Shown piece after piece: positions 11,901 through 16,617 of a stretch of DNA of 64,000 nucleotides. The DNA comes from Escherichia coli. Its GTDB lineage: Bacteria; Pseudomonadota; Gammaproteobacteria; Enterobacterales; Enterobacteriaceae. The notes beneath the pieces were generated by a model. The model was given only the letters and a program-made list of their open reading frames with translations, had not been told where the DNA came from and ran no database searches. Each line of letters begins with the position of its first letter. Position 1 is the stretch's first letter. The position numbers and the translations under genes were made by a program. Location: NCBI RefSeq assembly GCF_003334765.1, contig NZ_QOWT01000014.1; one strand, given 5' to 3'.

Positions 11901-12347
11901 ATGGCAGCTCTTACTGCAAGCTGTATTGACCTGAATATTCAGGGCAATGGCGCTTATTCCGTTCTGAAGCAGTTGGCGACAATAGCGTTACAAAACGGTT
12001 TTATCACCGACTCACACCAGTTCCTGCAAACCCTGCTGCTGCGCGAAAAAATGCACTCTACTGGATTTGGTTCCGGTGTCGCCGTGCCGCACGGTAAAAG
12101 CGCCTGCGTTAAACAACCGTTCGTATTATTCGCCCGCAAAGCGCAGGCTATTGACTGGAAAGCCAGCGATGGCGAAGACGTCAATTGCTGGATCTGCCTC
12201 GGCGTGCCGCAAAGCGGCGAAGAGGATCAGGTCAAAATCATCGGCACACTGTGTCGCAAAATTATTCACAAGGAATTTATTCATCAACTGCAACAGGGCG
12301 ATACCGACCAGGTGCTTGCCTTGTTAAATCAAACCCTCAGCTCATAA
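11901..12347 (+). CDS. frvA: PTS fructose-like EIIA component
   Basis: 148 aa with the EIIA(Fru/Mtl/Ntr)-type phosphorylation region (GVAVPHGKS). Confidence 0.88.
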   Translation: MAALTASCIDLNIQGNGAYSVLKQLATIALQNGFITDSHQFLQTLLLREKMHSTGFGSGVAVPHGKSACVKQPFVLFARKAQAIDWKASDGEDVNCWICLGVPQSGEEDQVKIIGTLCRKIIHKEFIHQLQQGDTDQVLALLNQTLSS

Positions 12348-12357
12348 GGAAGTGGCG

Positions 12358-13809: not shown

Positions 13810-14869
13810 GTTACTGCAACAGTTGTGCGAAGCCAGCGCCGTCAGCGGCGATGAACAGGAAGTTCGCGACATTCTGATAAACACGCTGGAACCTTGCGTG
13901 AATGAAATCACCTTCGATGGTCTGGGCAGCTTTGTTGCCCGTAAGGGGAATAAAGGTCCAAAAGTTGCCGTTGTCGGACATATGGATGAAGTCGGCTTTA
14001 TGGTCACCCACATCGACGAGAGCGGTTTTCTGCGTTTTACCACCATTGGCGGCTGGTGGAATCAGTCGATGCTCAACCACCGGGTAACCATACGCACACA
14101 CAAGGGAGTGAAAATCCCTGGTGTGATTGGTTCCGTCGCGCCTCATGCGTTAACGGAAAAGCAAAAGCAACAACCGCTGTCATTTGATGAGATGTTCATT
14201 GATATTGGCGCGAACAGTCGCGAAGAGGTGGAAAAGCGCGGCGTGGAAATTGGTAATTTTATTAGCCCGGAAGCCAATTTTGCCTGCTGGGGCGAAGATA
14301 AAGTGGTCGGCAAGGCGTTGGATAACCGCATCGGCTGCGCAATGATGGCTGAACTATTGCAGACGGTGAATAATCCCGAAATTACGCTGTATGGCGTTGG
14401 CAGTGTGGAAGAAGAAGTTGGGCTACGCGGGGCGCAAACCTCGGCGGAACACATTAAACCGGACGTCGTGATCGTGTTGGATACCGCCGTAGCGGGCGAT
14501 GTTCCGGGCATTGATAACATTAAATACCCGCTGAAACTGGGCCAGGGGCCGGGGCTGATGCTGTTTGACAAGCGCTACTTCCCCAACCAGAAACTGGTAG
14601 CAGCGTTAAAAAGCTGTGCCGCACATAACGATTTACCGCTGCAATTTTCCACCATGAAAACCGGTGCGACGGATGGCGGGCGCTACAACGTGATGGGCGG
14701 CGGGCGTCCGGTTGTCGCGCTGTGTCTGCCAACTCGTTATCTGCACGCCAACAGCGGTATGATTTCAAAAGCCGATTACGAAGCTCTGCTCACGCTGATA
14801 CGGGGTTTTCTGACGACCTTAACTGCGGAGAAAGTCAACGCGTTTAGCCAGTTCCGTCAGGTGGATTAA
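13799..14869 (+). CDS. frvX: M42-family (aminopeptidase/endoglucanase-like) metallopeptidase homolog
   Basis: Start ATG 13799 overlaps frvB 3' end; translation MNIELLQQLCEASAVSGDEQEVRDIL... typical of M42 family; 356 aa. Confidence 0.88.
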   Translation: MNIELLQQLCEASAVSGDEQEVRDILINTLEPCVNEITFDGLGSFVARKGNKGPKVAVVGHMDEVGFMVTHIDESGFLRFTTIGGWWNQSMLNHRVTIRTHKGVKIPGVIGSVAPHALTEKQKQQPLSFDEMFIDIGANSREEVEKRGVEIGNFISPEANFACWGEDKVVGKALDNRIGCAMMAELLQTVNNPEITLYGVGSVEEEVGLRGAQTSAEHIKPDVVIVLDTAVAGDVPGIDNIKYPLKLGQGPGLMLFDKRYFPNQKLVAALKSCAAHNDLPLQFSTMKTGATDGGRYNVMGGGRPVVALCLPTRYLHANSGMISKADYEALLTLIRGFLTTLTAEKVNAFSQFRQVD

Positions 14870-16617
14870 TGCTAAACGAACGCCAGTTAAAGATTGTCGA
14901 TCTGCTGGAGCAACAGCCGCGCACGCCTGGCGAGCTGGCGCAACAGACTGGCGTTTCAGGCAGGACCATCCTGCGTGATATTGACTATCTCAACTTCACC
15001 CTTAACGGCAAAGCCCGCATTTTCGCCAGTGGCAGTGCGGGCTATCAGCTGGAAATCTTCGAGCGCCGCAGCTTTTTTCAGTTGCTGCAAAAGCACGATA
15101 ACGACGATCGGCTGCTGGCGCTGTTATTACTGAATACTTTCACTCCCCGTGCGCAACTCGCCTCGGCGCTTAATTTGCCAGAAACGTGGGTAGCAGAGCG
15201 TCTGCCCCGGTTAAAACAGCGTTATGAACGCACTTGTTGCCTGGCCAGCCGCCCTGGTTTGGGCCATTTCATTGATGAGACAGAAGAGAAACGCGTTATC
15301 TTGCTGGCGAACTTGCTGCGCAAAGATCCGTTTTTAATTCCGCTGGCGGGCATAACACGAGACAACCTTCAGCATTTATCCACGGCCTGCGACAACCAAC
15401 ACCGCTGGCCGCTCATGCAGGGTGATTATCTCTCCAGCCTGATTCTGGCGATTTACGCCCTGCGTAATCAACTGACCGATGAGTGGCCGCAATATCCCGG
15501 TGACGAGATAAAACAAATCGTTGAACATAGCGGTCTGTTTCTTGGTGATAACGCTGTAAGAACCCTGACGGGTTTGATAGAGAAACAGCATCAGCAAGCG
15601 CAGGTAATTTCAGCCGATAATGTGCAGGGGTTGCTGCAAAGGGTGCCGGGCATCGCGTCATTGAATATTATTGATGCGCAGCTGGTTGAGAATATTACCG
15701 GGCATTTATTACGTTGCCTTGCCGCACCAGTGTGGATTGCTGAGCACCGCCAGAGCAGCATGAATAACCTGAAAGCCGCCTGGCCTGCGGCCTTTGATAT
15801 GAGTCTGCACTTTATTACGCTACTGCGTGAACAGCTCGATATTCCCCTTTTCGACAGCGATCTGATCGGTTTGTATTTTGCCTGTGCGCTGGAGCGGCAT
15901 CAAAACGAACGCCAGCCGATCATTTTGCTCTCGGACCAGAACGCGATTGCCACTATTAATCAGCTCGCCATTGAGCGCGATGTTTTAAATTGTCGGGTAA
16001 TTATTGCCCGTAGCTTAAGCGAACTTGTTGCCATTCGCGAAGAGATTGAGCCGTTATTGATCATTAACAACAGCCATTATTTACTGGATGACGCGGTAAA
16101 TAATTACATCACCGTAAAAAATATCATTACGGCTGCCGGTATCGAACAAATAAAACATTTTCTGGCGACGGCATTTATTCGCCAACAGCCGGAGCGTTTT
16201 TTCTCTGCCCCCGGAAGTTTTCATTATTCGAATGTACGCGGTGAAAGCTGGCAACATATTACCCGGCAAATTTGTGCGCAATTAGTCGCACAACACCATA
16301 TTACCGCCGATGAAGCACAACGCATCATCGCCCGCGAAGGCGAAGGTGAAAACCTGATTGTTAATCGCCTCGCCATCCCACATTGCTGGAGCGAACAGGA
16401 GCGACGTTTTCGTGGATTTTTTATTACCCTCGCCCAACCAGTTGAGGTGAATAACGAAGTCATTAACCATGTCTTGATCGCCTGCGCCGCCGCCGATGCG
16501 CGTCATGAGCTAAAAATATTTAGCTATCTGGCAAGCATATTGTGTCAGCATCCGGCGGAGATTATTGCCGGGTTAACAGGATATGAGGCATTTATGGAGT
16601 TACTTCACAAGGGGTGA
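14869..16617 (+). CDS. frvR: Putative transcriptional regulator of the frv operon
   Basis: 582 aa; ATG overlaps frvX stop (TAATG); N-terminal winged-HTH-like segment (LNERQLKIVDLLEQQPRTPGELAQQTGVSGRTILRDIDYL). Confidence 0.85.
   Translation: MLNERQLKIVDLLEQQPRTPGELAQQTGVSGRTILRDIDYLNFTLNGKARIFASGSAGYQLEIFERRSFFQLLQKHDNDDRLLALLLLNTFTPRAQLASALNLPETWVAERLPRLKQRYERTCCLASRPGLGHFIDETEEKRVILLANLLRKDPFLIPLAGITRDNLQHLSTACDNQHRWPLMQGDYLSSLILAIYALRNQLTDEWPQYPGDEIKQIVEHSGLFLGDNAVRTLTGLIEKQHQQAQVISADNVQGLLQRVPGIASLNIIDAQLVENITGHLLRCLAAPVWIAEHRQSSMNNLKAAWPAAFDMSLHFITLLREQLDIPLFDSDLIGLYFACALERHQNERQPIILLSDQNAIATINQLAIERDVLNCRVIIARSLSELVAIREEIEPLLIINNSHYLLDDAVNNYITVKNIITAAGIEQIKHFLATAFIRQQPERFFSAPGSFHYSNVRGESWQHITRQICAQLVAQHHITADEAQRIIAREGEGENLIVNRLAIPHCWSEQERRFRGFFITLAQPVEVNNEVINHVLIACAAADARHELKIFSYLASILCQHPAEIIAGLTGYEAFMELLHKG

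Follow-up and report, generated by a model that had tools for sequence, protein, structure and literature searches.

The frv operon and its gene complement

Positions 11,901 to 16,617 of the window, that is, of the whole 64,000-nt stretch of Escherichia coli DNA (contig NZ_QOWT01000014.1) that was analysed, hold the already known and annotated frv operon, whose four genes carry the RefSeq labels frvA, frvB, frvX and frvR. The operon is said to have been originally described by Reizer et al. in 1994 (Protein Sci 3:440); the locus analysed here is the same one, with no sequence difference, and nothing about the window itself is anomalous. The four open reading frames (ORFs) are on the same strand, are all intact, and lie where the initial annotation had placed them (Table 1). 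Each of the encoded proteins is matched over its full length by a frv-specific NCBIfam equivalog model, with a score that exceeds the curated cut-off. The identities assigned earlier hold: frvA and frvB for components of a phosphotransferase system (PTS), frvX for an M42-family metallopeptidase, and frvR for a regulator. By megablast, the region is present in 4246 of 5426 complete E. coli genomes, where it is chromosomal and annotated as frvA, frvB, frvX and frvR.

The reading frames overlap or abut, as had been noted before. A gap of 10 nt separates the frvA stop codon from the frvB ATG, with a Shine-Dalgarno sequence, AAGGAAGTGG, that spans the frvA stop codon; an alternative GTG start for frvB lies at 12352, two codons 5′ of the ATG. 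The frvB and frvX frames overlap by 11 nt, with CAGGAG 7 nt 5′ of the frvX ATG, and frvX and frvR overlap by 1 nt (TAATG). A simple scan for sigma-70 consensus and terminator-like sites found no promoter-like site at the gene junctions and no convincing terminator-like site there or elsewhere in the operon; it gave one internal match, at 15851-15879. Also in line with the initial annotation, the operon lacks a conventional sugar-phosphate enzyme: no kinase, aldolase or glycosidase gene was found within it.

Table 1. Features of the frv region, in coordinates of the window.
Feature	Position	Strand	Description
Distal leader	11602-11712	none	K-12-type junction; does not align among genera
Distal palindrome, TGTG-N8-C(A/G)CA	11771-11786	+	At -130 from the frvA ATG, the same offset in 33 of 33 leaders
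Proximal palindrome, TGTC-N10-GACA	11814-11831	+	At -87 from the ATG; predicted FrvR operator
Predicted promoter	11841-11869	+	Weak -35 TCATCA (11841-11846), 17-nt spacer, -10 TACAAT (11864-11869); predicted start near 11876
frvA ribosome-binding site, GGAG	11889-11892	+	8 nt 5′ of the ATG; conserved in the leader alignment
frvA	11901-12347	+	148 aa; PTS enzyme IIA (EIIA), fructose/mannitol type
frvB	12358-13809	+	483 aa from the ATG; PTS enzyme IIB-enzyme IIC (EIIB-EIIC), fructose family
frvX	13799-14869	+	356 aa from the ATG; predicted cytoplasmic di-metal M42 aminopeptidase
frvR	14869-16617	+	582 aa; regulator
Hairpin	16621-16645	none	Between convergent frvR and yiiG; 11-bp perfect GC-rich stem, -22.4 kcal/mol, z = -3.3

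FrvA and FrvB as PTS components

Judged by their sequences, FrvA and FrvB appear to be ordinary PTS components of the fructose (Fru) family with the phosphorelay residues in place. FrvA scores 289.9 bits against NF007389 (cut-off 151) and 146.6 bits against TIGR00848 (cut-off 103.5). Its phosphorylatable histidine, His64, lies in GVAVPHG, and the PH motif is present in 43 of the 43 homologues in our census. FrvB reaches 1032 bits against NF008493 (cut-off 806), and its domains are recognised individually, EIIB by TIGR00829 (102.8 bits, cut-off 76.85) and EIIC by TIGR01427 (196 bits, cut-off 157.55). The active-site cysteine, Cys13, lies in NCPAGIAHT, and the cysteine motif is found in all 41 homologues. 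The next-best full-length models for FrvB are FruA and then the mannosylglycerate transporter MngA (third-best, 256 bits).

No defined sugar substrate of FrvAB is reported in the literature searched. In a review from 2023, Frv is still entered as ‘putative, fructose-like’ (PMC10305011), in agreement with the earlier statement that the role and substrate of the system are undefined. A full-text literature search likewise found no functional study of frv; most of its matches to ‘frvA’ are to an unrelated Listeria P-type ATPase or to non-biological acronyms.

FrvX is a predicted M42 aminopeptidase

The sequence of FrvX points to a complete M42 aminopeptidase, with all metal ligands present. It matches PF05343 (Peptidase_M42) at 1.9e-102 over residues 43-333 and NF007367 at 843.6 bits, and its best sequence matches in the Protein Data Bank (PDB) are M42/TET aminopeptidases. 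The motifs HMDE, DNR, EE, LDT and LHA, which comprise the five metal ligands and the catalytic Glu, align with those of PhTET2 (1y0r), and these metal-ligand and catalytic motifs are kept in 36 of 36 census orthologues. Peptidase_M42 is the sole significant Pfam match; that is, no glycoside hydrolase domain was found. The description of FrvX as ‘endoglucanase-like’ in the initial annotation is thus obsolete; CelM, the founding ‘endoglucanase’, was itself shown to be a cobalt-activated aminopeptidase with no significant endoglucanase or cellulase activity (PMC3511314). An outdated-looking label of this kind, ‘putative endoglucanase with Zn-dependent exopeptidase domain’, is carried by sgcX in the RefSeq K-12 genome (9531-10652 of its locus). 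The Shigella FrvX clusters (P0337, P0341 and P0354) comprise proteins of just 299-302 aa.

FrvR is predicted to combine an Mga-type fold with an EIIA domain

In FrvR, Pfam recognises HTH_11 at residues 5-60 (8.2e-10) and PTS_EIIA_2 at residues 455-560 (3.4e-13). Compared with the PDB by sequence, the protein gives a weak match to PtsN only, and its N-terminus weakly matches the AcpB/EbpR/MafR model. The AraC-family label that FrvR carries elsewhere (PMC4797297, Table 1) was rejected, as we found no HTH_AraC or HTH_18 match and the domains present are HTH_11 and EIIA_2.

Structure prediction, which the initial annotation had proposed for the domains of FrvR, points to an Mga/AtxA-type fold with a C-terminal EIIA domain. 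The AlphaFold model (predicted local distance difference test score, pLDDT, 85) has two winged helix-turn-helix (HTH) domains at residues 1-63 and 78-135, a helical region of about 200 residues (139-343), a small alpha/beta domain (349-440) and then the EIIA domain. In Foldseek searches, the first ~445 residues match MgaSpn, AtxA and an Enterococcus faecalis Mga-family protein, over ~480-490 columns and with E values of 1e-8 to 1e-10, and the C-terminus matches EIIA(Ntr/Mtl) structures. The helical region 139-343 superposes on the PTS regulation domains (PRDs) of Mga and AtxA. Four residues, H279, R282, P504 and H505, are invariant over 30 homologues with identities down to 20%, and H279 and H505 are the sole invariant histidines. 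H279 is part of an HLxR motif within the PRD-like stretch, and H505 occupies the position of the EIIA phospho-histidine, with P504-H505 aligning with the IPH motif of PtsN. In the EIIB-like domain, no cysteine is conserved family-wide among the 30 homologues; C375 is restricted to the closer relatives of E. coli FrvR. Truncated FrvR clusters, such as P0031 (448 aa), may be fragments cut off at contig ends. The fold and the invariant histidines support a model in which FrvR would be a phospho-gated regulator.

The MtlR/LicR/ManR class of Bacillus regulators consists, in this order, of an HTH, an Mga-like HTH, PRDs, an EIIB-like domain and an EIIA(Mtl/Fru)-like domain. FrvR has the same domain order, with a helical PRD-like region in the place of the PRDs, is encoded together with the PTS that it presumably controls, and is associated with a palindrome 5′ of a weak -35 element. 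It differs from this class in being ~100 residues shorter, in lacking a Pfam PRD match, and in having one invariant histidine in the helical region (H279) and no conserved EIIB-like cysteine. The best structural matches, Mga, MgaSpn and AtxA (PDB 5WAY, 4R6I and 3SQN), align with FrvR over two winged HTH domains, two PRD-like domains and one EIIB-like domain. These proteins end at the EIIB-like domain and are tied to virulence; FrvR continues into an EIIA domain, in which one histidine is invariant, and is linked to a PTS cassette.

A conserved palindrome in the leader is a candidate FrvR operator

The leader (11601-11900) has a G+C content of ~37%, compared with 52-57% in the genes, and its 300 AT-rich bp had been taken to fit tight control. 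In an alignment of 33 Enterobacteriaceae leaders with differing upstream genes, conservation is confined to the last ~130 bp before the frvA ATG. Of the 300 bp considered earlier, only this proximal part appears to be conserved regulatory DNA; the distal part is the K-12-type junction. Homology to the arrangement in O157:H7 ends at 11601, the end of rhaM, and restarts at 11713.

The proximal palindrome, in the form TGTC-N10/11-G(A/G)CA, is found in 33 of 33 leaders with invariant half-sites and a free spacer. Among the ten non-enterobacterial loci described below, TGTC-N10/11-GACA occurs in 12 copies within the 250 nt 5′ of eight of the ten frvA-like genes, compared with 0.03 expected from dinucleotide shuffles; four of these loci have two copies each, 40-42 bp apart. 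Because the motif tracks the regulator across two phyla, we take TGTC-N10-GACA to be the best candidate for the operator of FrvR. A consensus scan found no strong sigma-70 promoter in the leader, which would fit a promoter that needs an activator. Of the 33 leaders, 29 have a TAnnAT hexamer at -37 from the ATG, and the position of the palindrome, centred ~53 bp 5′ of the predicted start, together with the weak -35 element, suggests activation.

The distal palindrome is offset by 43 bp from the proximal one, matching the 40-42-bp spacing of the tandem operators in Enterococcus and Peptacetobacter. Its outer TGTG/CACA core is kept in all 33 leaders. Compared with a CRP site (TGTGA-N6-TCACA), the diagnostic A at the fifth base is present in 0 of 33 and the T at the twelfth base in 3 of 33, and we have downgraded the CRP reading for this reason. 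The element may serve as a second site for FrvR or be the target of a different factor. A perfect palindrome, TTGTGA-N5-TCACAA, at 11702-11718 was also considered as a CRP site and rejected; its half-sites are wrongly spaced, it lies across the K-12-specific junction, and other genera do not conserve it.

No RNA family in Rfam matches the region 11400-16900, and a riboswitch or small RNA in the leader is thus unsupported. The hairpin downstream of frvR has no U-tract on either strand; it is likely to be the end of the transcript, where intrinsic termination would be putative.

The four genes form a conserved cassette in Enterobacterales

FrvR homologues of more than ~48% identity are found in many genera of Enterobacterales. 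The order frvA-frvB-frvX-frvR, the 11-nt overlap of frvB and frvX and the abutting frvX/frvR junction are kept in ~35 loci, which span Escherichia, Citrobacter, Klebsiella, Kluyvera, Salmonella, Trabulsiella, Superficieibacter, Enterobacter, Buttiauxella, Atlantibacter, Hafnia and others. The flanks of the cassette are unrelated among loci, and include a gat-like PTS operon, azlCD, fdhD, a sigma-54 Man-type PTS, and ispH-lspA-ileS. Nei-Gojobori estimates put the ratio of nonsynonymous to synonymous substitution rates (dN/dS) of each of the four genes at 0.01-0.11, whether alleles of E. coli or different genera are compared; in the latter comparison dS is saturated. When K-12-type alleles are set against O157-type ones, the ratio is 0.01-0.10, at a dS of 0.08-0.17. 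For frvX the ratio is 0.05-0.10, and frvB, which encodes the EIIC permease, is under the strongest constraint in the operon (0.01-0.05). These comparisons indicate that frvABXR is a mobile four-gene unit under purifying selection and no decaying relic. The initial annotation had also raised the case of an frvX that is unrelated to frvAB or separately transcribed; the conserved overlaps and synteny argue against this.

Several individual loci depart from the common layout. In Citrobacter amalonaticus AUH_CA_2023_1, frvB and frvR are each split into several ORFs, and in Salmonella enterica subsp. arizonae CCUG 6322T both genes are fragmented and no frvX ORF was detected. These copies, like the shortened FrvX proteins of Shigella, may reflect either decay in the lineage or assembly errors. 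In Superficieibacter sp. 1612_C1, a gene for a PatB-family carbon-sulfur (C-S) lyase (8750-9931; TIGR04350, 395.6 bits) lies directly 3′ of frvR and convergent to it; this arrangement, seen in a single enterobacterial genus, may be what is left of the lyase partner known from Firmicutes, or the result of its having been acquired anew. Finally, an enterobacterial frv cassette is present on a contig with the title ‘Chryseobacterium sp. 18061’, with layout and scores nearly identical to those of ‘Citrobacter sp. 18056’ from the same project; the assembly looks mislabelled or contaminated.

Relatives outside Enterobacterales pair the PTS with a lyase and peptidases

Relatives were collected by an FrvR profile search of 1.84 billion representative proteins, a genome scan with a 12-sequence FrvR alignment, and neighbourhood look-ups. 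Ten non-enterobacterial loci were readable: those of Listeria goaensis, three Enterococcus species, Peptacetobacter hominis and five others, including metagenome assemblies. All ten encode an EIIA, an EIIBC of the Fru family and an FrvR-type regulator. In all ten, too, the regulator gene adjoins one for an Aminotran_1_2 protein, a PatB-family C-S lyase scoring 325-396 bits against TIGR04350 (cut-off 340). M20 peptidases are encoded in seven of the loci, and the three that were scanned against NCBIfam are PepT-like. The L. goaensis locus has both an M42 enzyme and PatB, so that eight of the ten carry an M20 or M42 peptidase; it and the locus of Enterococcus pallens are examples of a cassette fuller than that of E. 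coli. No kinase, aldolase, isomerase or glycosidase was found in any of the ten. The recurring design would therefore seem to be a PTS together with enzymes acting on a free amino acid or peptide, and enterobacterial frv, by this comparison, a reduced cassette that probably kept the aminopeptidase and lost the lyase. FrvX itself is 60% identical to the L. goaensis M42 enzyme, compared with 35% to YpdE and 29% to SgcX, its E. coli paralogues; thus, FrvX belongs to the lineage of the cassette.

The gene complement of frv, described earlier as odd, is no isolated case: a PTS accompanied by an aminopeptidase and/or a PatB-type lyase recurs in E. coli as well as in Firmicutes. All three M42 genes of E. 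coli K-12 lie within PTS operons, namely frv, fryB-fryC-ypdF-ypdE-fryA and sgcX-sgcBCQAER. Like frv, the fry and sgc operons are cryptic and embed an M42 aminopeptidase, and their substrates are equally obscure; fry also embeds an M24 aminopeptidase. Their PTS components are unlike those of frv, and an frvR-like gene is absent from both (sgc carries sgcR); sgc in addition encodes an epimerase-like protein and is induced on nitrogen-containing, slow-growth substrates (PMC13343008). As for the lyase, malX and malY of E. coli encode a PTS permease and, next to it, a lyase of the PatB family, MalY being 41% identical to the cassette lyase, and in Lactobacillus sakei (LT-13) the cluster around malY includes two aminopeptidases, PRD proteins and a PTS of the Lac type (PMC5845896). 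In both, the permease adjoins a lyase of the PatB/MalY family, which depends on pyridoxal 5′-phosphate (PLP), and the enzyme set of the L. sakei cluster is the same as that of the cassettes. The PTS families (a separate EIIBC for MalX, a lactose/cellobiose type in L. sakei) and the regulators are different.

A proposed function for the frv cassette

We propose that frvABXR may be a PTS cassette complete in itself, one that moves horizontally and is silent as a rule. In its composite form, the proposal is that the operon would be an inducible PTS whose substrate is a sugar conjugated to an amino acid or peptide, with deconjugation by FrvX and phospho-gating by FrvR; we advance this reading tentatively, with a confidence that falls somewhat short of even. 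By homology, phosphate would pass from phosphoenolpyruvate (PEP) through enzyme I (EI) and HPr to His64 of FrvA and then to Cys13 of FrvB, and the EIIC domain of FrvB would import and phosphorylate a substrate of the fructose family. Gene linkage suggests that this substrate would be no plain hexose, but a sugar or glycoside bearing an amino acid or short peptide, and that FrvX would remove the substituent in the cytoplasm. In Firmicutes, the PatB/MalY-type beta C-S lyase and the PepT-like M20 peptidase would do the remaining processing, and the enterobacterial version would have kept the M42 enzyme only. What is left over would be an ordinary sugar phosphate, and a product as common as this would explain why kinase, aldolase and glycosidase are absent. 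Lastly, the fold, the invariant residues and the motifs conserved in the leader are consistent with FrvR being an activator with an Mga/PRD fold and a C-terminal EIIA-like domain, which would act on TGTC-N10-GACA at a promoter with a weak -35 element. PTS-dependent phosphorylation of His279 and/or His505 would gate FrvR, so that the operon would fire only during transport of its substrate.

By analogy, the idea of a conjugate is chemically reasonable. The Fru family includes MngA, the transporter of a glycoside with an acid aglycone, whose model FrvB matches. Furthermore, axillary staphylococci and corynebacteria are known to break down Cys-Gly S-conjugates with a peptidase and then a PatB-type beta-lyase, which act in turn on an amino-acid conjugate (PMC7385124); this resembles the chemistry proposed for the cassette. 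That route differs in using a peptide/proton symporter and no PTS for uptake, in the absence of a sugar moiety, and in that its genes are not clustered.

A broader claim can be framed, which we regard as somewhat unlikely: that the frv-type cassette, with its Fru-family PTS, FrvR, and PatB-type beta-lyase and/or M42/M20 peptidase, represents a pathway, so far overlooked, that handles glyco-amino acids or glycopeptides. In this scheme, the PTS would import and phosphorylate the sugar of an O- or S-glycosylated Ser, Thr or Cys, or of an aminoacyl-sugar conjugate; peptidases would trim this to a single conjugated residue; and the PLP lyase would free the sugar phosphate by beta-elimination, E. 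coli keeping a reduced version.

Several points weigh against the conjugate proposal. Beyond the identity of the domains, it is comparative throughout. We know of no M42 enzyme that acts on a glycoconjugate. The E. coli cassette is without the PatB lyase, the most constant accessory gene elsewhere, and its chemistry may therefore differ or be incomplete. The differences noted above between FrvR and MtlR, namely the missing Pfam PRD match and conserved EIIB-like cysteine, suggest that MtlR-style control logic would transfer only in part. About 22% of complete E. coli genomes, that of CFT073 among them, are without the operon, and some relatives carry fragmented copies. A 2026 transcriptome atlas covering 43 carbon sources never mentions frv (PMC13343008), and the M42 enzymes characterised so far cleave ordinary peptides (PMC3511314).

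The last of these points, along with the missing lyase, would also fit a simpler alternative, in which FrvAB serves as the PTS of an unmodified sugar or polyol, a fructose-like ketose, as the fructose-family models that best match both proteins would have it, and FrvX is a housekeeping aminopeptidase riding along with no role in the pathway. We consider this unlikely. The overlap of frvB with frvX and the gene order are conserved across genera, frvX is under purifying selection, and FrvX travels with the cassette, being closer to its Listeria counterpart than to the E. coli paralogues. Relatives fill the same position with other amino-acid or peptide enzymes, never with a sugar enzyme, and an M42 gene is present in each of three independent E. 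coli PTS operons. It is less probable again that FrvX in Enterobacterales and PatB in Firmicutes are mainly ‘trigger enzymes’, which would bind or modulate FrvR as MalY does MalT and so report metabolite status instead of supporting catabolic flux. An enzyme gene does abut frvR in every locus, even where the order is permuted (frvR-patB in locus L054), often with an overlapping junction, and the PatB-family protein MalY of E. coli, whose gene lies beside one for a PTS, has an annotation as negative regulator of MalT (PMC5845896). However, the M42 and PatB folds are unrelated, which makes one common protein-protein interface unlikely, and the conservation of all catalytic residues of FrvX would argue for a selected enzymatic activity.

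We give little credence to a reading of Frv as a regulatory branch of the PTS, comparable to PTS-Ntr, that would sense a compound or the PEP/pyruvate state and signal through FrvR to other targets, with no nutrient pathway at all. FrvR does bear its own EIIA domain, its closest solved relatives include PtsN, and the literature searched names no growth substrate; yet a full EIIC permease is present and is the most constrained protein of the operon, the conserved candidate operator sits in the cassette's own promoter, and the cassettes always carry enzymes of a catabolic type. Least credible to us is that frv has been silenced in E. coli and survives as an evolutionary remnant that no longer serves a function. 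The AT-rich leader with no strong promoter, the absence from about 22% of genomes through deletion or loss associated with insertion sequences (IS), the fragmented copies in C. amalonaticus and S. arizonae, the shortened Shigella FrvX clusters and the lost PatB partner could all be read in this way. Against it stand the low dN/dS values between K-12-type and O157-type alleles, the intact active-site residues in all cases, and the promoter-proximal motifs that are invariant in every leader aligned.

Variation around the operon

In the window, the frv operon is preceded by rhaD and rhaM, which are parts of the rhamnose operon. In O157:H7 (strain OK1), a gene of 464 aa and a further ~290 bp lie between rhaM and frvA, with the gene divergent from frvA (1242-2636 of its locus). 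The product matches Pfam Porin_8 at 5e-152 and has no NCBIfam match, and is accordingly a RafY-like glycoporin. This gene, absent from the K-12-type window, is present at a coverage of at least 80% in 2557 of the 5426 complete E. coli genomes. The porin was considered as part of the frv system and set aside, as it does not adjoin frv in other genera and persists in CFT073, in which frvABXR is missing. The bovine E. coli isolate OkiPb01717 has a gene annotated as fucO (lactaldehyde reductase) between rhaD and rhaM (949-2097 of its locus). In TW14425, an IS1 element (9115-9812 of its locus) stands where frvABXR and part of yiiG are gone, and FDAARGOS_1249 has IS5-family transposase genes within the frv region.

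Implications

In the literature searched, we found no earlier description of a cassette family with PatB and M20 partners, of the fold assignment for FrvR, or of the candidate operator. To the known frv operon, the present analysis adds conservation at the level of the cassette, its Firmicute relatives with PatB and M20 enzymes, the predicted fold of FrvR, the predicted operator, and the porin polymorphism. If correct, the glyco-amino acid logic would also explain the pairings of PTS and peptidase in fry/ypdEF and sgcX, and that of PTS and lyase in malXY. Likewise, if the assignment holds, FrvR would represent a new subclass of regulators with an Mga/PRD fold, and the operator TGTC-N10-GACA would be common to Proteobacteria and Firmicutes. 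Annotated in most E. coli genomes, the frvABXR operon is one of several in K-12 that encode a PTS with no assigned substrate. Taken together, the evidence for purifying selection, the partner enzymes for amino acids or peptides and the candidate operator turn an open annotation problem into one that can be tested.

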